A stretch of 64,000 nucleotides of DNA, from the NCBI RefSeq assembly GCF_963921235.1, contig NC_086108.1, forward strand, positions 39,744,001 through 39,808,000, given 5' to 3'. This document shows, in pieces, positions 1,711 through 32,076 of the stretch. A program made the position numbers and the translations under genes. The notes under the pieces were generated by a model that saw only the letters and a list, made by a program, of their open reading frames with translations, was not told the DNA's origin and made no database searches. Within the stretch, counting starts at the first letter, position 1. Every line of letters begins with the position of its first letter. The DNA comes from Mobula hypostoma. Lineage: Eukaryota.

Positions 1711-4510
1711 CAAAGTGGATGAGCTTAGAGGGTGGATCAGTACTTGGAGCTATTATGTTGTGGCCATTACAGAGACTTGGAGGGCTCAGGGGCAGGAATA
1801 GCTACTTAGTGTGTCAGGCTTTAGATGATGTTTCAGAAAGGACAGGGAGGGAGACAAAAGAGGCGGGGGCATGGCTCTACTGATCAAAGATGGTGTCACA
1901 GCTGCAGAAAAGGAGGAAGTCATGGAGGGATTGTCTACTGGGTGTCTGTGGGTGGAAGTTAGAAACAGGAAGGGGTCAATAACTCTACTGGGTGTTTTTA
2001 TAGACCACCCGTAGTAACAGGGACATAAAGGAGCAGATAGGGAGACAGATTCTGGAAAGGTGTAATAATAAAAGGGTTGTTGTGGTGGGAGATTTTAATT
2101 TCCCAAATATTGATTGGCATCTCCAGAGACCAAGGGGTTTAGATGGGGTGGAGTTTGTTAGATGTGTTCAGGAAGGTTTCCTGACACAATATGTAGATAA
2201 GCCTACAAGAGGAGAGGCTGTACTTGATCTGGTATTGGGAAGTGAATCAGGTCAGGTGTCAAGTCTCTCAGCGGGAGAGCACTTTGGAGATAGTGATCAC
2301 AATTCTATCTCTACCATAGCATTGGAGAGGGATAGGAACAGACAACTTAGGAAAGTGTTTAATTGGAGTAAGTGGAAATATGAGGCTATCAGGCAGGAAC
2401 TTGAAAGTATAAATTGGGAACAGATATTCTCAGGGAAATGTATGGCAGAAATGTGGCAAATGTTCAGGGGATATTTGAGTGGCGTTCTGCATAGGTACGT
2501 TCCAATAAGACAGGGAAAGGATGGTAGGGTACAGGAATCGTGGTGTACAAAGGCTGTTGAAAAACTAGTCAAGAAGAACAGAAAAGCTTCCGAGAGGTTC
2601 AAATAACAAGGTAATGATAGAGATCTAGAAGATTATAAGGCTAGCAGGAAGGAGTTTAAGAGTGAAATTAGGAGAGCCAGAAGGGGCCGTGAGAAGGCCT
2701 TGGCAAGCAGGATTAAAGAAAACCTCAAGGCATTCTACAAGTATGTGAAGAGCAAGAGGATAAGACATGAGAGAAAAGGCCAATCAATTGTGACAGTGGA
2801 AAAGTGTGTATGGAACCGGAGGAGATAGCAGAGGTACTTAATGAATACTTTGCTTCTGTATTCACTACGGAAAAGGATCTTGATGATTGTAAGGATGACT
2901 TACAGCAGATTGAAAAGCTTGAGCATACAGACATTAAGGAAGAGGATGTGTTGGAGCTTTTGGAAAGCATCAAGTTGGATAAGTCTCTGGGACTTGGAGG
3001 GGATGTACTCCAGGCTACTGTGGGAGCCAAGAGAGGAGATTGCTGAGCCTCGGGTAATGATCTTTGCATCATCATTGGGGAAAGAAGAGGTTCTGGAGGA
3101 TCGGAGAGTTGCAGATGTTGTTCCCTCATTCGAGAAAGGGAGTAGAGATAGCCCAGGAAATTGTAGACCAATGAGTCTTACTTCAGTGGTTGGTAAGTTG
3201 GTGGAAAAGATCCTGAGAGACAGGATTTATGAACATTTGGAGAGGCATAATATGATTAGGAATAGTCAGCATGGTTTTGTCAAAGGCAGGTCGTGCCTTA
3301 CGAGTCTGATAGAATTTTTTGAGGATGTGACTAAACATGTTGATGAAGGCAGAGTAGTAGATGTAGTTTATATGGATTTCAGCAAAGCATTTGATAAGGT
3401 ACCCCATGCAAGGCTTATTGAGAAAGTAAGGAGGCATGGGATCCAAGTGGACATTGCTTTGTGAATCCAGAACTGGTTTGCCCACAGCGGGCAAAGAATG
3501 GTTGTTGACAGGTTATATTCTGCATGGAGGTCGCTGACCAGTGGTGTGCCTCAGGGATCTGTTCTGGGACCCTCATAAATGACCTGGATGAGGAAGTGGA
3601 GGGATGGGTTAGTAAATTTGCTGATGACACAAAGGTTGGGCGTGTTATGGATAGCATGGAGGGCTGTCAGAGGTTACAGCAGGACTTTGCTAGGATGTAA
3701 AACTGGGCTGAGAAGTGGGAGATGGCGTTCAACCCAGGTAAGTGTGAGGTGGTTCATGTTGGTAGGTCAAATATGATGGCAGAATATAGTATTAATGGTA
3801 AGACTCTTGGCAGTGTGGAGGATCAGAGGGATCTTGGGGTCCAAGTCCATAGGACACTCAAAGCTGCTGCACTGGTTGACTCTGTGGTTAAGAAGACGTA
3901 TGGTTCATTGGCCTTCTTCAACTGTGGAATTGAGTTTAAGAGCCGAGAGGTAATGTTACAGTATATAGGACCCTGGTCAGACCCCATTTGGAGTACTGTG
4001 CTCAGTTCTGGTTGCCTCACTATAGGAAGGATGTGGAAACTATAGAAAGGGTGCAGAGGAGATTTGCAAGGATGTTTCCTGGATTGGGGGGCATGCCCTA
4101 TGAGAATAGGTTGAGTGAACTCAGCCTTTTTTCCTTGGAGCGGTGGAGGATGAGAGGTAACCTGATAGAGGTGTATAAGATGATGAGAGGCATTGATTGT
4201 GTGGATATTCAGAGGCTTTTTCCCAGGGCTGAAATGGCTAACACAGGAGGGCACAGTTTTAAGTTGCTTAGAAGTAGGTACGGAGGAGATGTCAGGGGTA
4301 AGTTTTTTATGTAGAAAGTGGTGAGTGCATGGAATAGGCTGCCGGCAATGGTGGTGGAGGCAGATATGATAGGGTCCTTTAAGAGACTCTTGAATGAGTA
4401 CATGGAGCTTTGAAAAATAGAGGGGTAATTTCTAAAGTAAGTACATATTTGCACAGCATTGCAGGCCAAAGGGCCTGTATTGTGCTGTAGGTTTTCTATG
4501 TTTCTATGTT
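1711..4510 (+). mobile_element. CR1 LINE, near-complete degenerate ORF2 (AP endonuclease + RT) and 3' tail
   Basis: Endonuclease motifs VAITETW, GDFNFPNIDW, LDLVLG, GDSDHNS; RT motifs SQHGFVKGRSCLTSL, YMDFSKAFDKVPH, KFADDTK; (TTTCTATG)n-type tail at about 4492-4510. Multiple stops and frameshifts. Starts abruptly at the Rex1 tail, consistent with Rex1 having inserted into it. Confidence 0.93.
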
Positions 4511-12645: not shown

Positions 12646-15600
12646 CACCATTATCCCTGCTAGTGTCCTCTTCCAATCAACTTTGGCTAAAGCCTCTCTC
12701 GTGCCTCTGCAGTTCCCTACACTCCACTGTAGTAGTGATACGTATGACTTTAGATTCTCCCTCTCAAATTGGAGGGTGATTTCTATCATATGATCACTGC
12801 CTCCTTAGGGTTCCTTTACCTTAAGATCCATAATCAAATCTGATTCATTACACAACACTTAATCCAGAATAGCTGATCTCTTTGTGGGCCTAACCACATG
12901 CTGCTCCACAAATTCATCTTGTAGACATTCTACAAATTCTTTCTCTTGGGAACCAAAATCTGCAGCAACCTGAATTCCCCAATCTACCTACATATTAAAA
13001 TTCCCCATGACATTGCCCTTATAGCATGCATTTTCTATATCCTGCTGATATTTGTAGGCCACATCCTGACTTCTGTTAGGAGATCTGTATCAGGGTCTTT
13101 TTACATTTGCAGTTTCTTAATTCTACCCATAAAGATGTACTTCTTCCAAACCTATGTTACCTCTTTTTAAGCATTTGAATTCACTGTTTTCTTTACCAAC
13201 TGGACCATTCACACCCTCTGCCTACCTGTCTGTCCTTTTGATACAGTGTCCATCCTTGAATGTTCCCAAATGTAATCTATCAGTCATGAGTCCATGATGC
13301 CCACAATGTCATACTTGCCAATCTCTAATTGCGTTACAAGATTGTCTCCTTATTCTGTTTACTGTGCATTCAAATATTACACCTTCACTTCTGTTTTTGT
13401 TACCTTTTTTGATTTTTGTCACCCTTTTCGATTTTTGTCCCCGTTGTACTGCAACTCATCCCACTGACTACAATTTTACTGTATCATCTGCCTGTCCTTC
13501 CTGACAGTCTCACTGCACACTGTCTCTGCTTGTATACCAACTGCTCCATTCTCTGCCCTATCACTCAGGTTCTCATCCATCTGCCAAATTAATTTAAATC
13601 TTCTCCAACAGTTCCAGCAAACCTGTCTGTTATTATATTAGTTCCCCTCGGGTTCAGGTGTAATCCGATCCTTTTGTACAGGTCATACCTTCCCCAGAAG
13701 AAATGCCAATAATCCAAAAATCTGAAGCTCTAAGCTCTGCACCCTGCACCGGTTCCTCAGCCATGCATTCAGCAGCCAAACCATTCTATTCTTACCCTCA
13801 CCTGCTCCACTCCTCCAACTGTGGATTCTGGTATAACAACTTCAGTCGTCTTCCCCACTTCCTTTCTGAGCCTCAATGCCAGAGACCTGGTTGCTGTGGT
13901 TTCCAGAGATTACTGCCCCGGAAGTCTAGCTTTTCAGCTTTCTACCTAACTCCTGAAATTCTGTCTTTAATACTTCCTCCCTTTACTTACCTATGTCATT
14001 GGTGCCAATATGTACGGAGACATCTGGCTGCTCACCCTCTCCCTGTAGAATGCCATGGACCCGATCTGAAGTGTCCCTGACCCTGGCGCCTGGGAGGACA
14101 CATACCATTCAGGTGTCTCTGTTGTGCCCACATAATCTCTTGTCCACTCCTCCAAACGTGGATTCTCCTATCACTACTTCAGTTGTCTTCCCCACTTCCT
14201 TTCTGAGTCGCAATGCCAGAGACCTGGTTGCCGTGTTTTCTTCCTGTTTTCCACTCTACCTCGCCCCCTCGTGGCATACTTAAATTCAGACAGGGCTCTA
14301 GTTCATTACAAGGAGGCCAGGAAGGCTCTTCAACCTAGACTTAAGAGAGTAGAAGGGGACAGGAGAAGGCCTTAACGAGTATGTTTAGGGAAAACTCCAA
14401 GGCATTCTACACATATGTGAGGAACAGGAGGATAACAAGAGTGAGGGTAGGACTGATCAGGGGTAAAAGAGGAAATATATGCCTGGAGTTGGAGAAGATA
14501 GGGAAGATCCTTAATGAATATTTCAGTATTCACCGGTGAGAGGGCCCTTGACAAATATGAGATAAGTATAGAGCAGGCTGATAAGCTGGAACGTGTCAGC
14601 ATTAAGAAAGAGGATGTACTGAATATAATGAAAAATATTAGGATACGTAAGTTCCCAGGGCAGGATGGGTTATATCCCAGGGTACTACGAGAAGCAAGAG
14701 AAGTGTTTGCTGCATCTTTAGCGATGGATTTTGTGTCCTCACTGACCACATGGGTAGTGCCAGAGGATTGGAGGGGGACAAACGTTATTCTTTTGTTCAA
14801 GAAATATAATAGGGATAACTCTGGGAATTATAGACGAGTGAGCCTTTTGTTAGTGGTGGACAACTTTTCGAGAGGGTTCCTAGGGACAGAACTTAATGAG
14901 TATTTGGAAAAGCATAGTCTGAATAGAGATAGCTGACAGGACTTTCTGAGAGACAGGCCGTGCCTCACAAGTCTTGATTGAATTCTTTGAGGAAATGTCA
15001 AACAAATTAATGAAGGCAGAGTAGAGGATGGGCTGTATATGGATATTAGAATGGCATTTCAGAAGGTTCCATTTGGTGGGTTCATTCAGAAAGTGAGGAA
15101 GTATAAGATCCAGGGAAACTTGACTTTGAGGATGCAGAATTTGCTTGACCATGGTAGATGGAGCATATTTTGCTTGGAGGGCAGTGACCAGTAGTTTTCC
15201 ACAGGGATCTGTTCTGGGGCTTGTGCTGTTTGTGATTTTTATAAATGACTTGAATGAAGAAGTGGAAGGATAGATTTTTAAGTTTGCACAAAAGATTGGT
15301 TGGGTTTTGTATAGTGTAGATTGTTGTCCTAGGTTACAATAGGACATTGATAGGATGCAGAGCTGGGCTGAGAAGTAGCAGATGTAGTTCAATCTGGAAA
15401 AGTATGACTTTGGGGGGAAGACTCTGGTTAGACTATACAGGTTTCCCCCGCCATCCGAAGGTAGAGCGTTCCTGTGAAACGGTTCGTAAGCTGAAATGTC
15501 ATAAAGCGTAGAAGCAATTACCATTTATTTATATGGGAAAATTTTGTGAGCGTTCGCAGACCCAAAAATAACCTACCAAATCATGCCAAATAACACATAA

Positions 15601-15860
15601 AACCTAAAATAACAGTAACATATAGTAAAAGCAGGAATGATATGATAAATACACAGCCTATATAAAGTAGAAATACTTCTCTACAACGATTGCCTGCACA
15701 GATCTCCGTAGCGAAAATCTCACGTAAGCGCTCTCGGCAGAAAATCTCATGCAAGCGCTGTTGGCATAAACGCGCTCTCCAGTAACCTTTAAACTATGAA
15801 GCTGCCAAATCTACCAAATAACACGTAAAAATACACAGCCTATATAAAGTAGAAATAATG

Positions 15861-16541
15861 TGTAAGGGGGTTTCGTCTTTTACTGCGTAGGCTAATTAAA
15901 ATGGCTTCTTTGTCATGTTATACTGGGGAATGCTTCTTTGTTATGTTAAATGCTGAGAAAGTCTCTAGCTAGACAGTTGCTTGGGTTAATACAGATAGCA
16001 GGGTGCTATTAACCAATTGAGATAGTTGTTATGATCTTGGTGTATCTGGGAGATTTGTATGTGCGGGGTTTTGGGGCAGAAGGCAGGAGAGCGAGTCAGA
16101 GGATGGTGCTGTGATGTCCGCTAACGGGGTCGGACCCCGAGGAGGGCGTTCGGCGAGGAGACAGAGACGGACTCATGTAGAGTGTCTGGTCGACCACCGT
16201 TGTGGGTCCCATGTGGCCGGTCGAGGTGGTCCGAGGGGTCGCAGGGTGAAGAAGAAGGTTCTTGAGCTCCAACTGTTTTGTGCACGAAGAGATTGAACTT
16301 TGCTAAGTGTGGTGCCTTTTATTTTCCTTTTATATTTTATTCTCTATTAATTATATAGTTCCAGTAATATCTATAAACTGTAAATCATTTAATGGTATCT
16401 GGTGTATTGTCTGTTATTTGGACGGGGTGGGATACATCACACAGCATCCACACAAACTAATTACCCAGTTTGGCGGAGGCGAGGGTTATTTCCCTAGACG
16501 ACAGCGAGCTGAGCGACCCTGAGGCTGACCGGGGGGCTACA
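15861..16541. mobile_element. Solo LTR (Gypsy-like), 681 bp
   Basis: TGTA...TACA termini; 4-bp TSD AATG at 15857-60 and 16542-45. The uninterrupted target (GAAATAATGTATGTACAG) is visible in the sister Tigger copy at about 32357-32374. No coding motif. Confidence 0.85.
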
Positions 16542-16689
16542 AATGAATGTACAGTGTAGTATCACTTACGGGAATTGGGACGACATCGAGCACACTGATG
16601 ATGGTGTGTTAGACTGACTTGTCGCAGGTTGGGATGGTGCAGTGGCCCCCACCCTCTGGGCCGCTGATTGATACATTGCCGCGAAGCAC

Positions 16690-16923
16690 GCAGGGGTAGC
16701 CGGGAGGCACACAGCACATCTTTAAGAAAAAAGCCGAAATAAACATGCTAATTAATTAGGTGCTGCCCAGCACGTAAATGTTGGCGCAGATCAGAGGCGA
16801 TTGCCGATTGCATCGGCACTGATCTGGGCCGACAATTACGTGCTAGGCGGCACCTAATTAATTAGCATGTTTATGTTGGCTTTTTTCTTAAAGATGTGCT
16901 GTGTGCCTCCCCGCTACCCCTGC
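16690..16923. repeat. Long imperfect palindrome (about 112-bp arms, about 10-nt loop)
   Basis: GCAGGGGTAGC...CTAATTAATTAGGTGC...GATCAGAGGCGAT pairs with ATCGGCACTGATC...GCACCTAATTAATTAG...GCTACCCCTGC. Confidence 0.93.
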
Positions 16924-17400
16924 ATTTTCCGCGAATCGGTACAGTATCTGTCTGGGGCCCGGGGGTTGGGGTGGTGGGACATGGGGGTGTTATCTCATCG
17001 TCGATCAGGGCAGGCAGCTCATCTTCTCCTATGACTGCCGACCTCGATGTTGAAGGTCGAGGTTCGTCGTCTGCTGTGGCTGATGTGGAAGGCTTGCTTG
17101 ACTGCTGAGCCTCACGCATTTTTATATCACACAGTTCTTTGTAAGGACTCAAAACATCCTGCAAATATCCCCTAAACCTACGTACCCTTTCAAAATTAAA
17201 GTGGTACTTTATCATTGCAGCGAAAGTCTCACGCAGTTGGTTCGCTTTCTGCATTCAGTTTCAATTATTATCCTTTCCTCTTCCAATTGCATCAGCTCTT
17301 CATCTATCAGTTCTTGGTCATGGGATGCCAAAACCTCTTCAACATCATCTTCGTCAGCTTCCACAAGCCAAACTCACTTCGTCCTTGCTTCGTTCACCAC
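16871..17400 (-). pseudogene. Tigger/TIGD-type transposase C-terminal remnant
   Basis: Minus-strand translations EADEDDVEEVLASHDQELIDEELMQLEEE and NFERVRRFRGYLQDVLSPYKEL match the acidic C-terminal region of Tigger transposases. No DDD domain retained. Confidence 0.75.
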
Positions 17401-17407
17401 GATCGAA

Positions 17408-17703
17408 ACAATAGACAATAGGTGCAGGAGTAGACCATTCGGCCCTTCGAGCCAGCACCGCCATTCACTGTGATCATGGCTGATCATCCACTATCAGTAT
17501 CCAGTTCCTGCCCTATCCCCATAACCTTTGATTCCGCTATCTTTAAGAGCTCTATCCATCTCTTTTTTGAAAGCATTCAGAGACTTGGCCTCCACAGCCT
17601 GCTGGGACAGAGCATTCCATATATCCACCACTCTGTGGGTGAAAAAGTTTTTCCTCAACTCCGTTCTAAATGGCCTACCCCTAATTCTTAAACTGTGGCC
17701 TCT
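17408..17703 (-). mobile_element. CR1 3'-end fragment nested in the Tigger element
   Basis: ORF 17494..17718 (-) GHSLRIRGRPFRTELRKNFFTHRVVDIWNAL; tail ACAATAGACAATAG. Confidence 0.88.
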
Positions 17704-19439
17704 TTTATGCCCCCTCATATAACACCCTTACGAGCTCTTTCAGGCTTTTCCGACACCTTAGAACTCATCTTGTAAACGGCTGCTCACAGGCTCGTGATTA
17801 AGCAATGCCATTCCGAATCCGGGGGAGAGCGGCTGCTCGGAGTGCGCGCTGCCTTTTATTGCGTGCTGCCTTTCTTCGTAACAGTGAAAACACCTTCTGA
17901 AAGGGAAAACAAGGTACTAATGTAGGTCTTTCATAACAGTGAGGTTTCGTAAAGCGAACGTTCGAAAAGCAGGGGACACCTGTACTTGGAATATTGTGCT
18001 CAGTTCTTGTTGCCTCATTGTAGTAGGATGGATGGTGAAACTTTAGAGAATATGCAGAGGATTTACCAAGAATGTTCCTGGATTAGAGAGCATGTCTTGG
18101 GATAGGTAGAATGAGTTGGAGGTTTTCTCTTTGGAGCGAAGGAGGGTGACAGGTAGCTTGATAGAAGGGTACAGGAAGCATGGATAAAGCAAGCTGGAGA
18201 CCTTTTCCCAGGGTGGAAATGTCTAATATGAGGGGGCATAATTTCAAGCTGTTTAGAGGAATGTACAGGAGGGATGTCAGGTTTTTACAGAGTGGTAGGT
18301 GCGTCAAACGTGCTGCCGAACGTTGTGGTAGAGGCAGCATTAAAGACACTTAAGAGGTTCTTTGATAGGCACATGGATGAAAGAGAAATAGAGGGCTATG
18401 TGGGAGGAAGGAGAGATCAATTTTAGAGGAGGTTAGAGTCAGCACAGTATCATGGGCCAGATGCACGTAAGAGTAATGTTCTATGTCGTTTATTCAACAT
18501 TGTTTACTTGCCAACTAAAAAGGATTGTTTCCTATTGTGTAACGTTTCTGTGATCATGATGCCCTTCATCTTGGATATAAGACTGGAATCTTAGCCAGTC
18601 AGTAGTCCACTTAGTCCAGTCAGCAGATTATGTGCTTCAACCTTCTATTTTAAGATGTGGTCACAAAGAACCAGATCATAGTTGCATGGAGGCATTTCTG
18701 CACTGTTGGGATGTACAGTAGATGAGATGGTGAACTAGGATCCATTTGCCCTTGCAGTGGTTTCAATAATCTTATTATGAAGCAGTAGATTTCAGCTAGT
18801 TGTGTTCAATGGTTGTTTCAACCAACAAGACTATAGTGTTTCTCTGAATAAATCAGCACCTTTCTTTTTCTTTCAATCTGTTTTTCTTTATGCTTGCAGT
18901 TTCATGTGATGAAAGGTCACAATTAAGGCCTTTTTTTTGTAGAAATGCAAACCCCCACCCCCATCGCATGAGTCAGGAGTCACACGCAGTAACATTTTTT
19001 TCTGTGAATTTTCACTGATGCTGCTGTGAAGGCAATACTCTATATAACTGCTGGGAGATTTCAGTTGCATGAATGAAACTGAGAATATATGCCAGTACAA
19101 TCCAAGGAAGCAAAGTTCTTTCAAGATTTGGAGTTTTCTGTTTACAAATAATCAATAATGAAGTGAGATACAAGTCATGTCATTAAAGATAAAGGTTTAA
19201 CAATAGATGGTTTACCTTTTAAGTGATAACTGTGGCCATTGCTACTTTAAGAGCAGCAATGTGTTCAGTGTTGAGTGTTGGTGAACATTCTTGCACTGTT
19301 ATAATTTTTTGGTTCTTTGGTTCACATTTCAATATGATCACTTTACTGATTGAAACATAAGTTGTGAATTCTTTTGCAGTATCAGACTTGTCTGCAATTA
19401 ATGATACTTAGCAACTATTTTTGCATCCTGCTTCCTGCA

Positions 19440-21100
19440 CCCAAGCTGAGCATGTCGACCATCAACTTTTCTTCCAATTTCTGATCCATTTCTGACACCT
19501 TCCTTTCCTTTCTCAATCTCTGTCTCTGAAGACAGCTTATCTACCGCTATTATAAATCCATTGACTCTCACAGCTACCTGGACTATACCTCTTCCCACCC
19601 TGTTACTTGTAAAAAAAAAACCACTTCCTTTTCTGAATTCCTCTGTCTCCTCCACATCTGCTCTCAGACTGAGGCTTTTCATTCCAGAACTAAGGAGATG
19701 TCCTCCTTCAAAGAAAGGGGCTTCCCTTCCTCCTCCTCCTCCATCATCAACGCTGCCCTCAACCGCATCTCTTCCATCTCGCACAGGTTCTTGCCTCACC
19801 CCATCCTTCCACCACCCCACTAGGGATAGAGTTCCTCTCGTCCTCACCTACCACCCCACCAGCCTCTGCATCCTGCACATAGTTCTCCGTAACTTCCACC
19901 ATCTCCAGAAGGATCCTACCACCAAGGACATCGTTTCCTCCCCCCCACTTTCTGCTTTCTGCAGGTATTGCTTTCTACACGACTCCCTCCTACTGTCCAT
20001 TCGTGCCTCCCCACTGATCTCCCTCCTGGCACTAATCCTTGCAAACAGATCAAGAGCTACACCTGCCCCTACACCTCCTTCCTCACTACGATTCAGGGCC
20101 CCAAACAGTCCTTCCAGCTGAGGTGACACTTCACCTGTGAGTTTATATCCGATGCTCCTAGTGTGGTCTCCTGTATGTTGCTAAGACCTGATGCAGATTG
20201 GGAGACCACTTCACCAAGCACCTATGCTTCGTCTGCCATAAAAATCAAGTTCTCCCAGTGGCCAGTCATTTTAATTCCACTCCCCATTCCCATTCTGATA
20301 TGTCTGTCCATGGCCTCCTCTACTGTTGGTCACAATGAGGCCACATTCGTGTTGGAGGAGCAACACCTTGTATTCCACCTGGGTAGCCTCCAACCTGATG
20401 GCATGTCCCTCCCACCCCCCCACCTTTACCATTCCCCATTCCCACTTCCCTCTCACCTTATCTGCTTATCATCTCCCTTTGGTGCTCCTCCCCCTTTTTC
20501 CATAGCCTTCTGTCCATAAGACCATAAAATATAGGAAAAGAATTAGGCCATTTGGCCATCAAGTCTGTTCTACCATTCAATCATGACTAATCCTTTTTTT
20601 AAATAGTTGACATTTTGGGCCGAGACCCTTCATCAGAACTGGAGGAAAAAAGATGAGAAATCAGAGTAAGAAGGTGGGGGGAGGGGAGGAACCAATACAA
20701 GGTAGTAAGTGATAGGTGAAACCAGGAGGGGAGGAAGGGTGAAAGCTGGGAAGTCGATTAGTAAATGAGATAAAGGGCTGAAGAAGAGGGAATCTGACAG
20801 GAAAAGACAGAAGGCCATGGAAGAAAGAGAAGGTGTCCTCTCCTATCAGATTCCCCCTTCTCCAGCCCTGTATCTCTTTCACCAATCAACTTCCCAGCTC
20901 TTTACGTGACCCTCACCCCCCCCAACCCTGGTTTTAGCTATCACCTTGCAGTTCTTCCTCCCCAACCCCCACTTTCTTACTGATTCCTCATCTTTTTTTC
21001 CGGTCCTGATGAAAGATCTCGGCTCAAAACATTGACTGTACTCTTTCCTATAGATGCTGCCTGGCCTTTTGAGTTCCTCCAGCATTAGATGTTTATTGCT
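19440..21100 (+). mobile_element. Penelope-like element (Neptune type): RT C-terminus, Cys linker, GIY-YIG remnant, terminal repeat with degenerate hammerhead
   Basis: Frameshifted DSHSYLDYTSSHP, RDRVPLVLTYHPTS, PCKQIKSYTCPYT, EEQHLVFHLGSLQPDGM; CTGATGA...CAAAAC at 21006-21030. Interrupted at 20516-20833. Confidence 0.88.
20516..20833 (-). mobile_element. Composite insert: PLE terminal-repeat fragment ending at hammerhead motif, joined to a CR1 3' tail
   Basis: 20516-20600 is a CR1 3' end (CCATAAGACCATAA tail); 20603-20833 is PLE pyrimidine-rich repeat with CTGATGA...CAAAATGTC on minus. TGTCC flanks both sides (20511-15, 20834-38). Confidence 0.7.
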
Positions 21101-21134
21101 GCCTGGCATTCAGTTTAATTGCATGAGACTTTGC

Positions 21135-21215
21135 CTCTACAGATGCCAATTGACCTATTAAGTTCCTCCAGCAGACTTTTTTTTTGCTCCAGATTCCTGT
21201 ATCTGCTGTTGCTTG
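21135..21215 (+). mobile_element. Old PLE 3' tail fragment
   Basis: AGATGCC...AGTTCCTCCAGCAG...GCTCCAGATTCC...ATCTGC resembles the PLE terminal block found elsewhere in the window. Confidence 0.55.
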
Positions 21216-21783
21216 AATAACTTTTGTTGCTTGTGCCCACTCTAATCCAAGTTTTCTCACTTTGGTGTTAAGAATACTTTTACCATGAGATGATTTGTAT
21301 TTTTAGAGTGGTAATACTTGCAAAGTGGCAGGATTTCCAAATAGCTTTTTGTAAAAAATGCTGGAAAGGAGTAGCATGTGGAATTTTGTTTTGGACAAAG
21401 CATATAATAAAACTTACCACTTGTGGATTGTTATTGCAGGTGCTATGCTGAATTGTAGGGCTAAAAATAATAGGATCAACAGTCGTCATGAAGTTAATTG
21501 AAGTACAGCTTCTAAAGTTGGCACAATTGCTTTCCCAGTGAGTTACTGTGCTGTCCAGAAGATTTCCTGTAGTGATTCAGCTGTGAAACATGAGAATGAA
21601 ATGTACTTATCTTTTGACAGCAGTTTGAAATAGAACTGCGGGGAATGGGCTGCATTTGCAACTTCCATCCCTGTGCAATGCAGCATTTAAGTGCAGATAT
21701 GCTAGAGGTCAAACGCTGGTGGCAGACTTAGCAAAAATTTCAGGGTGGAACACAAACATCCTGAGCTTGAAGGACTGTATGTG

Positions 21784-22596
21784 CGGTGGATTCTGGTTAA
21801 TCAGTTAATCAGGCAGCAACTTATTTGGGACAACTCTTTAAAGAACAAAAATGATTCGAGAAACTAGCATGATTCCTTTTTATTTGGGACATTATGCTGC
21901 CTAATTGAGACAGAAGACTATTGCCAAACAGTTTCTAACTAGCATCAGTCACGTGCACTTGAATAGCTGTTAGATTTTAAAGCAAAGAGTTTTTAAATAG
22001 CATCAGTTGCTTGTATTCAAAATCCAATGATTTTTGTCACTGATAGTGAGAAATAAGCAGGAAAATAATTCAGCACTGCTTTGTTCACTGTAGTTTCAAG
22101 CATCCAGGCTTGGAGACTCCAGAATTAACCATTAGACATTATGAAGTGAACAGTTTTCAAATAGAGTCAGTTTATGTGCTTGTGTTATGTTATTCATTTG
22201 GGCCAACAGACACCGATTCCAAAAAAAAAGTGATTTTTTTGATAATTCGTTTTTTTTTAAATTTCAACTTTAAGCAGGAAGGCAATGAGGTAGTCCATTA
22301 TGTGCACTAGTTGGCGGTGACCTCTGCTGATTTTGTTAATCAAAATAGCAGTGATGAATTCTTCCGTTGATAACTATTAGGAACTAAAACACAGTTTTAC
22401 CGCACTGTAGTAGCTTGGCAGTATTCTAATTTGCTCTGTATTTCATTTCAATGCGTAATTTGTTACTCAGTTAAATGATACTTTGTCGTTGTTATGTCTT
22501 TTAACTATTTCCATTAAACTTCAGCTAATTGGGGCAGCCACTTATTAGGGCAAAATGTACTGGTCCCGATGTGACTGAATTAACTAGAATCCACTG
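21784..22596. mobile_element. Non-autonomous Tc1/mariner-superfamily (pogo-like) DNA transposon
   Basis: TIRs CGGTGGATTCTGGTTAAT / ATTAACTAGAATCCACTG; TA at 22597-98 (left side reads TG). Confidence 0.75.
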
Positions 22597-24324
22597 TAAT
22601 TGGTATTTGCCCTATAGTTATCTTTTGCACTCTGATTTATATGAATTAGGCCACTGTTCTAAATGGAAAATTGTTGGTTAATTTGAATTCTGATTCACGT
22701 TTATTTACATCAGTAAATGTTTTTGTGGACTTTTCAAATATCAGGTGAAAGCTGGATTAACAGTCTGTCCCATGCACATCATTGGATTGCTGAATCCATT
22801 ACTTACCCCCAAATATAACATGAAGATGTTACAAAAGGTGCACTAAAGTATAAACAAATATCTCATGGTAGGCGGTTTAACTGCTGCAAAGTAGTCATGA
22901 TGTTGCTATTACTGAGGCTGTGATAGGTTTGTGGAGGTTAGTTCAAGAATCGGATAGTTGAAGGGAACCCAATCTACATTTGTTCCTCCAGTACACAGGA
23001 GGCCTTTTATGATCAGTGAATGAGGTATGCTAGATTGGAAGAACTGTGAGTGATTTGCAGCTTCATCTGGAAGGGGGTTGGTGAGAAGAGGGGAGTTGAA
23101 TGTCTACCAGCTTTGGTCAAGGAAATTAACAATGAAGATGAAGTGCTGTATACATGCTGTAATTCTTTTGACTTATTGAGATAAAACTAAGATGTTTTAG
23201 TAATAAAAACTAATAGTGAGAGTTTTATTTTCATTTGTGCAATTAGACTTTGATGCACTAATTGTTTGGAATTATATGTTGTATCTTCAAAATAAGATGA
23301 ATTATCATCCAACTAAAACCTTTGGCAACATGATTGTAGCTAGGGTTTAAGAATGTCTGTTCCAGTACATGACAGATAAAACTGATTTCTTAGTTTCTGA
23401 GTTCTGCCAATTTAATTTTAGTTAGATTTTCAGGTTCAACAAAACATAATCAGCATCACACACAAAATACTGGAGGAATTCAGCCAGTCAGGCAGCATCA
23501 ATGAAGGGGAATAAACATTTGACATTTTGGGCTGAGGCCCTTCATCAGGACTGGAAAGGAAGTAGGCAGAAGCCAGAATAAGAAAGTTGGGGGTGGGGGG
23601 GGGGAGGAATGAATACTAGCTGCCAGCTGATAGATGAAATCAGGTGGGTGGGCGGGGGAAGGGGGGAATGAAGAAAGTAGCTGGGAGGTGATAGGTGGAG
23701 GAAGCAAAGGGCTGAAAAAGAGGGAATCTGATAGGAAATGACTGTGGAAGAAGGGGAAGGAGGCGGGACACCAGAGGGAGGTGATGGGCAGATGTAGAGA
23801 AGAGAAATGGGGTGATGGGAACCAGAATGGGGAATTGGAAAAAAGAGAAGGAAAAGGGAGAAATTATTGGAAGTTAGAGAAATCAATGTTCATGTAATCA
23901 GGTTGGAGGCTACAGAATTTGTAGCCTCATCATGGCAGTAGAGGAAGTCGTTAATCAACATCTCAGTCTGGGAATGGGAAGTCAAATTGAAATGGATGGT
24001 CACCAGGAAATCCCATCTTTTGTGGTGGATGGAGCGAAGGTGCGCGACAAAGTGGTCCCTCAATCCATAGTACGTTGGGTCTCCTCACCAGTGTCGAGCA
24101 GGCCACACTTCGAGTACTGGTTATAGAAGACCACCCCAACTAGACTCACAGGTGAGCTGTTGCCTCACTTGTGTTCCTCCAGCATTTTGTGTGTTTTGCT
24201 CAAGATTTCCAGCATCTGCAGAATCTAAACAACAGGAATTCTGCAGATGCTGGAAATTCAAGCAACATACATCAAAGTTGCTGGTGAACGCAGCAGGCCA
24301 AGCAGCATCTATAGGAAGAGGCGC

Positions 24325-24360
24325 AGTCGACGTTTCAGGCCGAGACCCTTCGTCAGGACT
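24325..24360 (-). ncRNA. Minimal type-I hammerhead ribozyme motif (intact core)
   Basis: Minus strand AGTC-CTGACGA-AGGGTCTCGGCCT-GAAAC-GTC-GACT: stem I AGTC/GACT, core CUGANGA and GAAA, stem II hairpin, palindromic ACGU in place of stem III, GUC cleavage triplet. Confidence 0.85.
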
Positions 24361-24654
24361 AACTGAAGGAAGAGTGAGTAAGGGATTTGAAAGCTGGAGG
24401 GGGAGGGAGAGATGCAAAATGATAGGAGAAGACAGGAGGGGGAGGGATAGAGCCGAGAGCTGGACAGGTGATAGGCAAAAGGGGATACGAGAGGATCATG
24501 GGACAGGAGGCCTAGGGAGAAAGACGGGGGGGGGGGTGACCCAGAGGATGGGCAAGAGGTATATTCAGAGGGACAGAGGGAGAAAAAGGAGAGTGAGAGA
24601 AAGAATGTGTGCATAAAAAGGAGTAACAGCTGGGGTACGAGGGGGAGGTGGGGC

Positions 24655-24948
24655 CTAGCGGAAGTTAGAGAAGTCAATGTTCATGCCATCAGGTTGGAGG
24701 CTACCCAGAAGGAATATAAGGTGTTGTTCCTCCAACCTGAGTGTGGCTTCATCTTTACAGTAGAGGAGGCCGTGGATAGACATGTCAGAATGGGAATGGG
24801 ATGTGGAATTAAAATGTGTGGCCACTGGGAGATCCTGCTTTCTCTGGCGGACAGAGCGTAGATGTTCAGCAAAGCGGTCTCCCAGTCTGCGTCGGGTCTC
24901 ACCAATATATAAAAGGCCACATCGGGAGCACCGGACGCAGTATATCAC
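24655..24948 (-). CDS. PLE GIY-YIG endonuclease domain (C-terminal fragment of a 5'-truncated element ORF)
   Basis: VIYCVRCSRCGLLYIGETRRRLGDRFAEH...PVATHFN...H...EEQHLIFLLGSLQPDGMN: GIY/YIG motifs with CxxC, catalytic Arg/Glu/Asn positions and His residues. Not an independent gene. Confidence 0.85.
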   Translation of the reverse strand: MIYCVRCSRCGLLYIGETRRRLGDRFAEHLRSVRQRKQDLPVATHFNSTSHSHSDMSIHGLLYCKDEATLRLEEQHLIFLLGSLQPDGMNIDFSNFR

Positions 24949-27164
24949 CCCAGTCGACTCACAGGTGAAGTGAATCTCCTGTGTTTAAAAATTGGCTTCA
25001 TTTTGTAGCCACAAACATAATTGCTCTGATTTTGAATTTATTTCTTCCTGGATACAAAAACTTGTTTAGAATTATTGCTGTACTATTTTAGGGAGATATG
25101 CACCACGTCTGAGCTTGTACCCTTATTTCTGTTGGTGACAGCTGCACTTAGAAACCAGCATGCAATGAAATACATGTTACCAATATTGACTAAATTTTTA
25201 ATGTCTAGCACAAGAAAAATTTAAGTTATTGTTTAATTAACAAGACTGATCATATGTGACTCCACAACAACTTTAACAAGAACTTTTAAAAGTAATTTGA
25301 TAGTTATATTGACATCTTTTAACTAAATGGATCATGCGAAAGTTTAAGCAACAGCTAAGCAAATTCTGTTGCGTATCTTAAAAGTGTCCTTGGTTTGCAT
25401 ATGAGAATTTGTACTGCTTGAACTGGGTATGTGTGATGAGACTGGCCCTTTAAAGGGCAGCTCCCACTAAGGATTTGTATTTGGCATGAGAAAAATTCCT
25501 AAACTAGACAGCTGAATATATTCCTCAAAGATGACAGCAGGATCAGGGGTCGGTTGTCATTTTGAATCATTTGGAAAGTTTGATTGTATTACATCTAAGT
25601 CTAAAATTCTTTGAATATTGCCATCATTTGTTAAGTTGTCATGTTACTTTTATTCCATAGGCATACACAATGTTAATTAAGTATTTAAATTTATTAAAAT
25701 CTGTTTTGTGCCCAGAGAACAAGTTTTGTATTTGAATCTATCATGAACCTTCTACTTGTGGAGACGAAATGTAATTTTGTTTGTTAGACTTGTGAAGAGA
25801 AAGTGCAAGGCAATAATTCTTATTTCGTGCTTGAAATGACTTGCAGTATCAACATGTTTGAAAGCTTCAATGTAATGAACAGTTGGTCAGGCATTTTGGA
25901 GCAGTCAGAAGCTTAGTGTTAGCTTGAATATTGAGACATTGTATGATATTTTGGCATTCCAAAGGAAAACAAATATAAAATGTTGAATTGTGTGCTATTT
26001 TCAATTTGCTGCTTTTTTTGATCTGAAGCATATTTATCAAATAAACATTAGCATTATGTTCATTTTAATAACCTTAGAAGAGCAGACAATCATACTAAGT
26101 GTTTTCTTGTTGCCTACTGTGAGTTATCAGCAAACATAAGCTGTAATTAGCATTCAGGCAGTATGTTTTCTGAGAACAATAATTTTGTTCAGTTTGTTTC
26201 ACGGCACCTTTGTGGGCGTGTGCCGTAATGGACTGTGGATGGAACACATTGTAACTTGATCTGTTTCAATTTAATCCCGAGAGCTAACAGATGAAGTATC
26301 AAGATGTGACTCAGGTCATTTGTCAGAAGTGCAGTGTTCAGTATTGTGGATAGAAGACTTGTGCCTATGTATGTTTCCAAGAGGATTCTATACAATGTTT
26401 CTGTGGAGCTTTTTCTTTTAATGTTGTCTAAGTATGAATCTCATAGTTGTGTTGGAATTGGAGCATTTGTGAATGGTTTGTAAACCAAACAATGAAACTG
26501 GAAAATGCAGTGAGGTCTAGGAGGTACAGAAGTAAATGTAATTACTACTAACAGTGTTAATACTGGCAATAGCAGGGAAATTGTTGATTTGAATATGTTG
26601 GATGGATCAGATAACAGTAACTGGTAACAGTAAATTAATTAGTTCAATGTGAAACCATATGTTTCATTTCCATGTGCAAAGAATATTAATGCAAGTTATT
26701 GCAGGTATTCTAATTTAATCATTTTGTTGCAAATGGTGTTTATTATAAGCAACTTAGCTTCAGTACCTTCTTTATTGCAATACTGACTTTTTTATTGTCT
26801 AAAGCAGTTAAGGACTTCCTCCTCTATGATAATGTAAATGTGAAACTGCCTGTGACTAGAGCAGAGGAATTAATGTTCAGATGCTAGGTCTAAAGGCTGA
26901 TTATTGAAATGTAATGTGGCTCAGAGTATTTGCCATCAGTGATTAAGGGAGCTAGATTGATTCCTTCAGAAGTAGCCTTTTTACAAAGTAGATTTGTTTT
27001 TTTTGTAAAACGTTTACATAAAACAATTAAACATATATTTCGTTTTTAGAGTAAAGCTAATGGTTAGATTTCTGTTGATTTGCACAACATTCTTGTGCGA
27101 GAAATTTTGCTGTCTGCAGTTTGAGATAAAGCCTCATTAACTTGGTAATATGACAGAAAGTAAC

Positions 27165-27377
27165 ACACATCAAAATTGCTGGTGAATGCAGCAGGCCAGG
27201 CAGCATCTCTAGGAAGAGGTACGGTCGACATTTCTGGTCAAGACCCTTCGTCCTGATGAAGTGTCTCAGCCCGAAATGTCGACTGTACCCCTTCCTAGAG
27301 ATGCTGCCTGGCCTGCTGCGTTCACCAGCAACTTTGATGTGAGTTGCTTGAATTTCCAGCATGTGCAGATTTCCTCG
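27165..27377. mobile_element. Fold-back (head-to-head) PLE terminal mini-element with hammerhead motif
   Basis: 14-bp TSD TGACAGAAAGTAAC (27151-64, 27378-91); about 88-bp inverted arms joined at GTC 27250-52; plus-strand GTC-CTGATGA...CGAAAT-GTC-GAC at 27250-27283. Confidence 0.92.
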
Positions 27378-27446
27378 TGACAGAAAGTAACGTGTAGTGA
27401 ATTTTTCTGGAAAGGTTATGCTGAATAGAGTAAATTCAATTCAATA

Positions 27447-27776
27447 CAGTTGGCCCTCTGTATCCGCAGATTCAACCAACCGCGGATCGAAAATATCAAC
27501 CATGGATCGCGATTATTGCGTCTGTACTGAACATGTACAGACTTTTTTTTCCTTGTCATTATTCCCTAAACAATACAGTATAACATCTATTTACATAGCA
27601 TTTACATTGTATTAGGTATTATAAGTAATCTAGAGATGATTTAAAGTATACGGGAGGATGTGTGTAGGTTATATGCAAATACTACGCCATTTTAATAAGG
27701 GACTTGAACATCCGCGGATTTTGGTATCCGCGGGGAGTCCTGGAACCAGTCCACCGCGGATACCGAGGGACGACTG
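27447..27776 (+). mobile_element. Tigger-family MITE, Tigger3a/MER7A (Golem)-like, 330 bp
   Basis: TA flanks (27445-46, 27777-78); TIRs CAGTTGGCCCTCTGTATCCGC / GCGGATACCGAGGGACGACTG. Internal sequence matches my recollection of the MER7A consensus. Second copy at 32077-32948. Confidence 0.88.
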
Positions 27777-30328
27777 TAATTACAAATAAGAACTCATTTC
27801 CAATTGAGATAACTCTTCATCATTCTTTCTTCAAAATCAATTGCAATAATTCTGAATGATAAAGAGCTATCTCAATTGGAAATGTGTTTGTAAGGATTAT
27901 TGTTTTATTGTCTGAATCCAGATGCCATGTGAATTTCAGCAGATCATAATCTTAACAGAGACATGAGAAATGGTTCCTTAGATTTTTAGTTCACCCCTTG
28001 ACAAATTGAGTTTTTCTTACTTACCATTTCTAGGACTGTTAAGTAGCTAGGTGCTGAGATTTTACAATATGTCTCTTTCACTGATATTTTCGGTCGTGAA
28101 GCTTATTTGGCAAAGCTGGTTGATCATATAGCTACCTTTTTATTTATTGTCAAGGTATTAAATAAGTTAATGAATTGTGGATATAGAATAGATAAAAGTC
28201 ATCCATGATAGATAGTGAAGCTGTAAACAAAACAATATATTATGCTTAATACACCAAGGATATCTTTTGGGATAAAAAGCATTTGAGCACTAGAAAAGTT
28301 ATGCTTTAGACTTGTAAAATGAGTGACAGTATTGATTTATATATTCCTTTGGCATTGATTGCTGGTGTTTGTTCAGCTTCCTTCTGTTTGAATTTTGGAT
28401 TTAAAGATCAATAATAATATTGTTTCACTTTTGGAAATACTAAAATTTAACCTTTGCAGTGTTTGGAAAGGTGAATTGTGGATAACATTCAGACCTGAAT
28501 ATCTAATCGCTGTGGGGGATTTCTTGCTCTTGTGAGGTAATGTCATTCCTGACATGGGAGGTCACTTTGCTTGGCCCGTGAGACTTGAGACTGTGAAAAC
28601 AATCTCAGTTTCTGGGCCCTCCACCTTGGTGGTTGTAAGAGTTGATTCTGAGACTTCAGGAAGTGGTTCTGACAGCTCTGGACACCTTTCCTCTCCATTT
28701 CTTGGCTCTTCACTTTCCTTTTTCTTCTAGTTTGTGCACCTTGATCCTGGGAAGGTCCATTTAGTTCAAGGGAGTATTCTCTTATTAATCCTTCTATTTC
28801 TCCCTTTATAATCTGATACCCTCTCGGTTTCCTCATCCACAACATCATCTGATAGATCCTCTGTTTTCATATCTTTATTGACCCCTTTCTTTTCGGTCTT
28901 CCATTCACTTTGCAGGCTTTTGTATCAACCTTTACAAGCAGCTTTTATTCTCCCACTTGAAGTTCATACAATAACATTAATGTACACAGATTAGATTCTG
29001 GTTCTTTATACGCAGAAAAGCCATATGCTTGCGACTTTCCTGTAGCTCCTTGAACTCTCTTCCAATTTAAAACCAAGCCATGGTTCACAAGTAACTGCCT
29101 GGTTAGCATATCAGAAGCTTTTTCAGATATGTTGCCTACAAAAACTGTTGGAGTCGGACCAGTATTTTCTTCACTTACTCACTTCCTCTGAGCAGCATGG
29201 TCTTTCCTTGGTCCAATATGCTTTCCAATCTGAGGCACAGAGACTGGGATCAACACCTGCTTGCTCTCTGTTACGCAATGGTTCTTGGTTTTCAGTATGG
29301 AAGTGGTTGTGGCAAAATCCAGTACTTTTCTTAATTTGATTTCAGTTGTCTCAATTTCAGGGGATGTGGCATATAAGTTATGGATGGATCTCCTTTCAAG
29401 TTGTAGTTGTCTGTCACTCACGACCTCAGAACGCCAGCTCTCCTGTATTACCACATGCAAGCCCAATGTGGCTTGTTGGTTGTGGTATTTCACTGTCATG
29501 AATGTCATTCCCACAGGAATGATCTTTTCTCCAGTATAAGTTCTTAGTTGGATATCTGGAGGCTTCAGTTTAGTATCTTTGAAATGCTGTTCAAACTAAT
29601 TTTGTGAAATAATTGAAACAGCTGAGTCAGTGTTGAATTCCATTTTAATTAATTTGCCATTCACTTCTGTTGTAAGCCATTTTGCTTGTCTACTATTAGT
29701 TTTCACATTGTAAAATCTCAAGGCTATTCAGTCCTGTGTCACTCATCATTATCAGATTTTTCATTAATAGCATGCAGATTAGTGCTCTTTTTGAAACTAC
29801 AACTTGACTTTTATCTTTTTCTCTTCCATGTGCAGTCCGTTTACTTTTGTCTACCCAACATGCTCTTTTGCATGTGTCTTAATTTGTTGCATTTTCGGCA
29901 AGTTTCACCTTTAAACCTGCATTGGTCTAGTGTTTGTGACCCTCTGCCACAATGGTAACACAATTTGTTCGGCCAGGCCAGTTTCTTTTTAGAGATTGCA
30001 ATTTTGTTCATACTCACTTTCATTCTTGACTGGAACTCAATGGTATCTCCCACCACTGTTTCTATTGGTGCAGCTATTGTAGCTGCTCCTTTAAAAGTAC
30101 GTTGTGCTTCAGTTAGGAGCTGTTTTTGTATACTTTTTTTTGTATACTTTTTTTTTGTAAGATTCCACAAGCTAAACAATTTCTCAATGCATAATTAAGC
30201 CCATTACCGAACTGACGATGCTCAGACCTCTTCAATTCAGTCAGGTATGCTGAAAAGGACTTCCCTTCCTTTCGATTCCGTGTATGAAACCTAAAGCATT
30301 CTGCAATCAACAATGGTTTCAGTTCTAA

Positions 30329-31819
30329 ATGTTCCTGCAATACTTCCACAATATCAGCAGAACTTATAACTATATCCCTTCCCCACATGAAACCACCATG
30401 GTGGGCTTCACAGCTGAACAGTTGAGAAGACAGCTGAAACGTCTCAACCCAAGCAAGGCTGCAGGACCGGATGGTGTCAGTACCAGGGTACTCAAAGCCT
30501 GTGCCCCTCAGCTATGTGGAGTACTTCGCCATGTATTCAACCTGAGCCTGAGGCTCCGGAGGGTTCCTGTGCTGTGGAAGACGTTCTGCCTTGTCCCTGT
30601 GCCGAAGACGCCGCGCCCCAGCAGCCTCAATGACTACAGACCGGTGGCATTGACCTCCCACATCATGAAGACCGTGGAGAGACTTGTTCTGGAGCTGCTC
30701 GGGCCTGTGGTCAGGCCACACTTAGATCCCCTCCAGTTCACCTACCAGCCCCGACTAGGAGTTGAGGATGCCATCGTCTACCTGCTGAACCATGTCTACG
30801 TCCACTTGGACAAGCCAGCGAGCACTGTGAGGGTCATGATTTTTGACTTCTCCAGTGTGTTCAACACCATCCGCCCTGCTGTGCTGGGGGAGAAGCTGAC
30901 AGCGATGCAGGTGGATGCTTCCCTGTTGTCACGGATTCTTGATTACCTGACTGGCAGACCACGGTATGTGTGCTTGCAACACTGTGTGTCCGACAGAGTG
31001 ATCAGCAGCACTAGGGCTCCACAGGGGACTGTCTTGTCTCCCTTTCTCTTCACCATTTACACCTCGGACTTCAACTACTGCACAGAGTCTTGTCATCTTC
31101 AGAAGTTTTCTGATGACTCTGCCATAGTTGGATGCATCAGCAAGGGAGATGAGGCTGAGTACAGGGCTACGGTAGGAAGCTTTGTCACATGGTGTGAGCA
31201 AAATTATCTGCAGCTTAATGTGAAAAAGACTAAGGAGCTGGTGGTAGACCCGAGGAGAGCTAAGGTACTCGTGACCCCTGTTTCCATCCAGGGGGTCATT
31301 GTGGACATGGTGGAGGTTTTCAAATACCTGGGGATACGAATTGACAATAAACTGGACTGGTCAAAGAACACTGAAGCTGTCGACAAGAAGGGTCCGAGCC
31401 GTCTCTATTTCCTGAGGAGACTGAGGTCCTTTAACATCTGCTGGACAATGCTGAGGATGTTCTACGAGTCTGTGGTGGCCAGTGCTATCATGTTTGCTGT
31501 TGTGTGCTGGGGCAGCAGGCTGAGGGTGGCAGACACCAACAGAATCAAGAAACTCATTCGTAAGGCCAGTGATGTTGTGGGGATGGAACTGGACTCTCTG
31601 ACGGTGGTGTCTGAAAAGAGGATGCTGTCCAAGTTGCATGCCATCTTGGACAATGTCTCCCATCCACTACATAATGTACTGATTGGGCACAGGAGTACAT
31701 TCAGCCAGAGACTCATTCCACCGAGATGCAGCACAGAGCGTCATAGGAAGTCATTCTTGCCTGTGGCCACCAAACTTTACAACTCCTCCCTTGGAGGGTC
31801 AGCCACCCTGAGCCAATAG
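30329..31819 (+). CDS. Open 496-aa reverse transcriptase ORF of Rex1/Babar copy B (no endonuclease domain; ATG from flank)
   Basis: Uninterrupted frame with KAAGPDGV, NDYRPVALTSHIMK, DFSSVFNTI, PQGTVLSPFLF, KFSDDSAI, FKYLGI and C-terminal domain. The first ~12 codons lie in antisense Gypsy sequence. Expression not shown. Confidence 0.75.
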   Translation: MFLQYFHNISRTYNYIPSPHETTMVGFTAEQLRRQLKRLNPSKAAGPDGVSTRVLKACAPQLCGVLRHVFNLSLRLRRVPVLWKTFCLVPVPKTPRPSSLNDYRPVALTSHIMKTVERLVLELLGPVVRPHLDPLQFTYQPRLGVEDAIVYLLNHVYVHLDKPASTVRVMIFDFSSVFNTIRPAVLGEKLTAMQVDASLLSRILDYLTGRPRYVCLQHCVSDRVISSTRAPQGTVLSPFLFTIYTSDFNYCTESCHLQKFSDDSAIVGCISKGDEAEYRATVGSFVTWCEQNYLQLNVKKTKELVVDPRRAKVLVTPVSIQGVIVDMVEVFKYLGIRIDNKLDWSKNTEAVDKKGPSRLYFLRRLRSFNICWTMLRMFYESVVASAIMFAVVCWGSRLRVADTNRIKKLIRKASDVVGMELDSLTVVSEKRMLSKLHAILDNVSHPLHNVLIGHRSTFSQRLIPPRCSTERHRKSFLPVATKLYNSSLGGSATLSQ

Positions 31820-31974
31820 GCTGGTCCTGGACTTATTTCCTGGCATAATTTACATACTACTATTTAACTATTTATGGTTTTATTACTACTTATTATTTAT
31901 GGTGCAACTGTGACAAAAACCAATTTCCCCCGGGATCAATAAAATATGACTATGACTACTATGACTATGACTAT
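30365..31974 (+). mobile_element. Rex1/Babar LINE, copy B (5'-truncated, young)
   Basis: Near-identical to 1-1710; continuous RT frame; AATAAA followed by (ATGACT)n tail at 31945-31974. Gypsy gag is colinear across it. Confidence 0.95.
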
Positions 31975-32076
31975 TTCTGCTGGTTTGGTTGGAGCAGTAA
32001 ATCTTCAAATCAAACCCAATGCACTCAGCAAAATTGATATTTCTTTCTCTTGGGCTATTCCACTTGCTTCAAAATA

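Follow-up and report, generated by a model that had tools for sequence, protein, structure and literature searches.

A deleted Tigger copy in Mobula hypostoma, an intact family transposase in ray GTF2I models, and possible kinship with eutherian MER82

MER82 is a non-autonomous element of eutherian genomes, about 650 bp long and with almost no coding sequence. Repbase lists it as a human repeat under Mariner/Tc1 (PMC5753468), and one copy, common to human and mouse, is the source of a shared CTCF site (PMC6979391). The sections of the literature consulted do not name an autonomous partner for it. Here we describe a Tigger (pogo) element at positions 15438-17982, minus strand, of a 64,000-nucleotide stretch of Mobula hypostoma DNA (RefSeq assembly GCF_963921235.1, contig NC_086108.1, positions 39,744,001 to 39,808,000 of the forward strand), together with the transposase family from which it derives. 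We refer to the whole of this stretch as the window. With other Tiggers the family shares a TA target-site duplication, short terminal inverted repeats (TIRs), the transposase domains CENP-B_N, HTH_Tnp_Tc5 and DDE_1, and a DD32D triad that lies within the DD29-36D range reported in the consulted text of PMC7386202 and PMC9219625.

Transfers of Tigger elements have precedent, and the window element works like any other non-autonomous Tigger. Transfers between Eutheria and two sharks have already been claimed for other elements (PMC9219625), and the accessible sections of that paper and of PMC7386202 do not name rays or Trichuris as transfer partners. Among 975 vertebrate transfer events, fewer than 3% involve mammals and birds (PMC7070016). 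DNA transposons make up less than 3% of batoid genomes according to a 2026 preprint on mobulids (10.64898/2026.10.27.761883), the extract of which does not discuss transfer. The extract of PMC2777200 makes no mention of GTF2I, the host gene considered below. The literature that we searched, with most subscription journals and Repbase Reports lying outside it, holds no ray, Trichuris or GTF2I account of this Tigger family.

The window element is dead. It is a non-autonomous member, with an internal deletion, of a Tigger (pogo, DD32D) family that occurs in high copy number in a myliobatiform-type ray. The reading that we prefer, and consider likely as a whole, takes the element to be a deletion derivative whose partner persists in rays, spliced there onto a host gene through a donor of its own, and takes the family to be kin to MER82 and to have spread horizontally.

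The deleted copy and the intact transposase of its family

The limits of the element are defined by the sequence that it interrupts. It covers 2,545 bp with TA on both sides (15436-15437 and 17983-17984), and its flanks are two halves of a single CR1-type reverse-transcriptase stretch of a long interspersed nuclear element (LINE). The left flank resembles 3515-3732, and the right flank 3988-4296, of another CR1-type copy in the window; across the TA joint the translation runs KTLVRL, then LEYCAQF. Because the flanks rejoin as one LINE stretch, both the insertion and the limits of the element are secure. The 3′ TIR (15438-15459, minus strand) and the 5′ TIR (17961-17982, minus strand) agree at 17 of 22 positions. 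A TA-flanked element with TIRs had been proposed from the letters alone, and the two end motifs quoted in support of it are present exactly, on the minus strand, at 15438-15472 and 17961-17982; neither motif recurred in 100 shuffles. A third quoted block is also present, but it stands in a second copy, at 32591-32646, and not inside 15438-17982.

Between these ends, the coding part keeps about 35 codons from the N-terminus, fused to about 140 from the C-terminus, and has lost the catalytic domain. The start codon and first 16 codons (17721-17768, minus strand) are 75% identical to residues 1-16 of P0002, a ray protein described below. Nine further codons, FDRGERSKD (17381-17407, minus strand, frame -3), were placed against the N-termini of relatives and lead into the internal deletion junction. 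The C-terminal stub (16964-17364, minus strand) corresponds to about residues 440-580, with one frameshift, and matches P0002 at 84% over 37 aa and 68% over 76 aa (E 1e-32); its 97-aa frame has no Pfam match. The Tigger-type C-terminus that the sequence-only reading had recognized is therefore real, at 17364-16964. Its broader claim of retained transposase coding sequence applies to the two stubs and not to about residues 36-439 of the 578-aa transposase, where the whole DDE domain and most of the DNA-binding region have been deleted. An autonomous Tigger has an intact transposase frame between its TIRs, whereas this copy has a deletion, a frameshift and inserts: about 1,320 of the 2,545 bp belong to three later nested inserts, and its own sequence comes to about 1,220 bp. 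The deletion copy was moved in trans, by the family transposase, into a TA within the CR1-type LINE, and three other mobile elements later inserted into it.

The family is abundant. It is high-copy in three public sequencing runs from two organisms, and 83,084 contigs of one run match the element, most of them at 90-99% identity, where contig depth is not to be equated with copy number. One run contributed no more than 26 contigs. The best-matching runs, among the 8 of 24 listed, contain only 0.53-0.60 of the sampled words.

The C-terminal stub led to an intact enzyme. As a query it matched five of 185 candidates, four of them Mobula and Hypanus proteins (63%) and one a protein without species label (51%). 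P0002 belongs to a cluster of GTF2I isoforms that open with a complete Tigger transposase of 578 residues in Mobula hypostoma, M. birostris and Hypanus sabinus. In these gene models, from chromosome-scale ray assemblies, the transposase is in frame with GTF2I. P0007 has the Pfam domains CENP-B_N, HTH_Tnp_Tc5 and DDE_1 together with six GTF2I repeats, and the catalytic triad is D194-D309-D342, that is, DD32D. Tigger domains and a triad in the DD29-36D range are present in P0007, P0025 and P0029, whereas the window copy keeps stubs only. At the level of predicted proteins, the autonomous partner is a transposase of about 590 aa that survives intact in Mobula and Hypanus. The suggestion that the coding remnant could identify such a partner, and that a full transposase open reading frame (ORF) might be recovered, has thus been borne out for a 578-aa DD32D protein in both genera.

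Between Mobula and Hypanus, the transposase part is 91% identical and the GTF2I part 98.9%. Identity is higher in the first 160 residues, the DNA-binding part, than in the rest (95% versus about 89%; Fisher p 0.036). The 575-codon transposase frame is open in both genera, which suggests selection on the fused transposase, and we lean towards the view that the fusion has a function. Rays also have an annotated, unfused GTF2I host isoform. In joining a transposase in frame to a host regulator while keeping an unfused isoform, the ray gene resembles the host-transposase fusions described in the consulted part of bioRxiv 10.1101/2020.05.07.082677. That survey began from tetrapod annotations, and eight of its nine fusions used an acceptor located upstream of the transposase; in the ray gene the transposase comes first and would supply the donor. 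Because upstream acceptors account for eight of the nine surveyed fusions, capture on the donor side would be the rarer kind. The ray gene also differs from GTF2IRD2, which carries a 3′ hAT transposase (PMC10641963, as far as consulted) where the ray gene carries a 5′ Tigger transposase.

How such a donor could have arisen is suggested by the ends of the family proteins, of which there are three, diverging at the same residue. Unspliced ray forms extend for about 30 residues, as the window copy does; its final codons and stop, resuming past a palindromic insert, were placed by eye against the ends of P0001 and P0034 (16609-16632, minus strand). Four full-length proteins without species label have a 14-residue tail instead, and the fusions run into GTF2I. 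Each window copy encodes the 14-codon tail close to its 3′ TIR, immediately after an AG; 10 of 13 residues in one copy and 11 of 12 in the other are identical to P0025, a level reached in 0 of 300 shuffles. In the element at 15438-17982 it forms a probable terminal coding exon behind an acceptor-like site (15529-15572, minus strand). We consider it rather likely that the native element was spliced at its 3′ end: the gene would hold a short intron, running from a donor past the codons for ...EEG to the 14-codon exon by the 3′ TIR. Rays would have reused this donor, so that the first coding exon of GTF2I follows a complete transposase, as the protein junctions suggest.

Other ray gene models also contain Tigger-derived sequence. 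P0009 and P0014, which are Mobula and Hypanus GTF2I isoforms X6 and X7, have as another first exon a 214-residue DNA-binding region of Tigger/Jerky type. This region is unrelated to the DD32D family and is 94% identical between the genera, with a best fetched non-ray match of 32%; we take it to resemble mammalian Tigger7. P0034 and P0113 (Hypanus, Hemitrygon) are 98% identical, internally deleted family proteins of 328 aa in which the DNA-binding domains are joined to the C-terminus, possibly representing a further domesticated gene. Two LSM12-like gene models of Hypanus, P0003 and P0004, start with the family's C-terminal stub and may be another exon capture.

Kinship with MER82

Both ends of the element, its subterminal blocks and the leader of the second copy presumably agree with the MER82 consensus. 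One of the subterminal blocks has been confirmed in dog DNA. We searched full-text literature with three window motifs in both orientations and matched one of the three: a primer designed from the dog reference genome (marker CAMC11.002; seen in the extract of PMC2732616) is identical at 20 of 20 bases to window 17913-17932, minus strand. This motif had been named MER82-like before the search, and the identity extends four bases beyond it. The supplements of PMC6979391 and PMC3714349 yielded no MER82 sequence. The dog-matching block is non-coding and lies 50-70 bases inside the element end, outside the TIR. If one billion printed bases are assumed, chance would produce such a match for three motifs with a probability of roughly 0.005. 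The 20-mer has no match in 596 billion bases of GTDB (prokaryote) genomes and none in JGI metagenomes. A single IMG/VR match (L001) lies inside a phage-like reading frame with unrelated flanks, and was rejected as chance.

We interpret these observations to indicate that the ray family is probably kin to MER82. The same family, or a very close sister, would have given rise to the eutherian element, judging from the 20-base dog match and from the presumed agreement of the ends. The two differ in form, as the window copy keeps coding stubs and about 1.2 kb of its own sequence, where the short, non-coding MER82 has about 650 bp. Given the length kept and the different deletion points, the window copy is an independent derivative and not a copy of MER82; it is probably a sister derivative of MER82's autonomous family.

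The strongest alternative, which we nevertheless judge unlikely, is that this is an ordinary ray Tigger without a close eutherian relative. The MER82 likeness would then be mistaken, or a matter of short subterminal blocks common to related Tiggers, leaving only a link between rays and whipworms (Trichuris). Such a view gains from the finding that no species-labelled mammal protein reaches at least 60% identity to the ray transposase. Counter to this, the dog match arose from a motif chosen beforehand, with the low chance expectation given above, and it is neither coding nor part of the TIR. In addition, the TIR and subterminal motifs of the ray family are absent from the supplementary Tigger tables of PMC7386202 (Table S1) and PMC9219625, so they are not generic Tigger sequence.

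Distribution of the family and its spread

The criteria for horizontal transfer listed in PMC9219625 are patchy distribution, a tree incongruent with that of the hosts, and divergence below that of host genes; we considered the first two. Proteins were pooled from two word-sharing searches, each of which scored its 7,999 best candidates, and from a HMMER search against representatives clustered at 50% identity. Of 351 proteins examined, 341 can be aligned with the ray transposase for 80 aa or more, and 31 reach 60% identity. These 31 comprise 12 from rays, 6 from Trichuris suis and 13 without species label, with no other named species among them. In protein databases, then, species-labelled matches of at least 60% occur only in three ray genera and T. 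suis, a patchy distribution. The best of them are Mobula and Hypanus proteins, which supports the earlier placement of the family in a cartilaginous-fish host.

The T. suis relatives are 64-73% identical to the ray transposase. Four gene models (KFD69417.1, KFD62076.1, KFD64279.1 and KFD61368.1) have DD32D where the triad region is complete, form a sister clade with 100/100 support, fall into two subfamilies and are annotated as hypothetical proteins only. Far behind come the next species-labelled vertebrate relatives, from arowana (45-49%) and human TIGD1 (39%); carnivoran Tigger1-type proteins of 593 aa are only 38-39% identical. The HMMER search of representatives found no full-length protein closer than 49%, and its seven species-labelled near matches belong to a snail, crab, spider, arowana or Tasmanian devil. 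A transposase scan of viral contigs, JGI metagenomes and GTDB genomes gave no match.

In a tree of 28 proteins, a single clade (100/100) with a long stem, 0.5 changes per site, unites the rays, the proteins without species label and Trichuris. Branches leading to ray proteins are short (0.04-0.07); the proteins without species label lie amid them on longer branches, at an unresolved fork. A tree of 13 proteins, from which the latter were left out, rejected a grouping of ray with bony-fish Tiggers (p-AU 1e-80) and of the ray with the bamboo-shark Tigger (p-AU 2e-5), the constrained groups having been chosen after the first tree was seen. The tree is incongruent with the hosts for ray versus nematode; mammals are not placed in it.

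Looking across these results, we regard horizontal spread overall as quite likely. The family would have reached rays and placental mammals horizontally and not by descent, and trichurid nematodes or other invertebrates are likely to have served as its reservoir or relay. The sequence-only reading had proposed transfer and called for a survey of taxonomic distribution and a test against the host tree. The patchy distribution, the whipworm relatives and the ray-nematode incongruence sustain it, while the mammal-ray leg hangs on the 20-base match and on the presumed likeness of the ends.

Vertical inheritance, from the jawed-vertebrate ancestor or earlier, would demand that the family stayed active in rays and on the mammal stem and was lost elsewhere. 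We regard this as improbable, more so than an ordinary ray Tigger. Rays are presumed to evolve slowly, and gene-model databases miss decayed copies, so that absence from other vertebrates is weak evidence. Tiggers are also present in nearly all vertebrate classes (PMC7386202, consulted sections). Yet the nearest species-labelled relatives of the ray proteins are found in a nematode and not in other fishes, and the 89-93% likeness between the window copies, together with the short ray branches, fits one invasion. Moreover, DNA transposons evolve neutrally unless transferred, and their long vertical persistence under constraint is not the rule (PMC7070016, consulted sections). Mammalian contamination or an assembly chimera can largely be dismissed, since nothing other than the likeness to a mammalian repeat speaks for it, whereas the element splits a resident CR1-type LINE at a TA, nested repeats recur elsewhere in the window, and the family is both high-copy in the public runs of two organisms and present as transposase in chromosome-scale ray assemblies.

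Several points weigh against the combined reading of deletion derivative, ray partner with its spliced fusion, MER82 kinship and horizontal spread. The eutherian match spans only 20 bases, is not labelled MER82 in PMC2732616 and falls in a subterminal region that may be constrained. A second literature motif search was empty, and none of the three protein searches, each limited to word-sharing candidates, returned a species-labelled mammal protein of the family. Tree incongruence by itself is expected among paralogous Tigger families, and at only 64-73% identity the ray-Trichuris link would be older or indirect. As for the partner, the fusion is an NCBI gene model, and the Hemitrygon and Pristis isoforms among the 15 listed of 29 cluster members lack it. 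The predicted splice had no matching joint among 15 listed of 158, the window copy lacks a GT where the donor should be, and two tail-bearing ORFs, on contigs of 39 kb and 118 kb, fit an intron-less form equally well.

If the combined reading is true, a mammal-ray transfer in which a parasite lineage with the same family can be named would clearly illustrate the rare transfers that involve mammals. MER82 would gain its mobilising enzyme, and binding of that enzyme to MER82 ends would become testable. With the ray GTF2I fusions, transposase capture reaches the cartilaginous fishes, and a single host gene family, GTF2I, seems to have been its target more than once. A fuller scenario is tentative, and we think it less probable than its converse. 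Under it, the missing autonomous transposase of MER82 would survive, its triad intact, at the front of a GTF2I fusion protein of mantas and stingrays. One Tigger lineage, among several shared families, would have passed between early placentals and myliobatiform rays via parasitic nematodes. Rays and other hosts would each have domesticated it on their own, and the GTF2I family would have captured transposases convergently, twice in rays and also in mammals (GTF2IRD2).

The P0026 cluster (9 members, 18 contigs), P0005, P0024 and P0025 are full-length family ORFs that are 73-80% alike. A single catalytic aspartate has been substituted in P0026, and likewise in P0005, as often in domesticated copies. 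The N-terminal extension of P0026 matches a piece of the 5′ untranslated region (UTR) in the second window copy at 7 of 12 residues (0 of 300 shuffles), so at least one host of these ORFs keeps the same non-coding leader. Separately, a hagfish Tigger, P0054 (Myxine), and a bamboo-shark Tigger, P0093 (Hemiscyllium), group together with full support and with very little branch length between them. They are another candidate for transfer, unrelated to the ray DD32D family.

Nested inserts, the second copy and other repeats

The three inserts nested in the element at 15438-17982 had not been mentioned before. The largest is a solo insert resembling a long terminal repeat (LTR) at 15861-16541, which is 681 bp long, begins with TG, ends with CA and has a 4-bp duplication on each side. 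Other family copies skip it. The second is palindromic and resembles a miniature inverted-repeat transposable element (MITE), with 122-nt arms at 89% identity and approximate boundaries at 16641-16971; we take its termini to be hAT-like. The third, a CR1/LINE 3′ fragment at 17411-17719, resembles other copies in the window and stands in place of about 27 bp of N-terminal coding sequence. Contigs of the public runs skip the LTR-like insert (joints 15859>16547 and 15861>16553) and the LINE tail (17410>17720, with 27 letters between); the 15 joints listed of 158 include none that bypasses the palindrome. The element also has an extra segment at 15676-15860 (minus strand), made up of duplicated 3′ sequence, with a 29-bp exact duplication, and a weak trace of transposase residues of about 151-175 (E 0.28).

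The second copy lies at 32148-32646 (minus strand), where a partial copy had been noticed earlier. It is a 5′-truncated deletion derivative of the same family that retains the 3′ TIR, the terminal exon, the C-terminal stub (about residues 495-552) and a piece of the 5′ UTR. Its TIR lacks a clean TA and its deletion points differ from those of 15438-17982, with which it is 92.6% identical over 188 bp and 88.9% over 99 bp. This copy is nested in a different TA-flanked element at 32077-32948, which has 24-bp TIRs matching at 20 of 24 positions. The outer element, we presume, closely resembles mammalian Tigger3/Golem derivatives; were this so, it would be a second family common to rays and eutherians. 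The second literature search, made with two motifs of this outer element and with two peptides, gave no match.

An Rfam scan of 14000-34000 gave no match. Elsewhere in the window, two copies of a LINE reverse-transcriptase region, at 30329-31819 and 114-1568, are 93-96% identical, and one of them has a 496-codon open frame; by these measures they belong to a young LINE family. Frames at 50646-51418, which resemble those of a Tc1 transposase, lie between 76-nt inverted arms at 50335-50410 and 52197-52272. Finally, a long inverted repeat at 42275-42804, with 188-nt arms at 93% and a 154-nt spacer, is probably a MITE.

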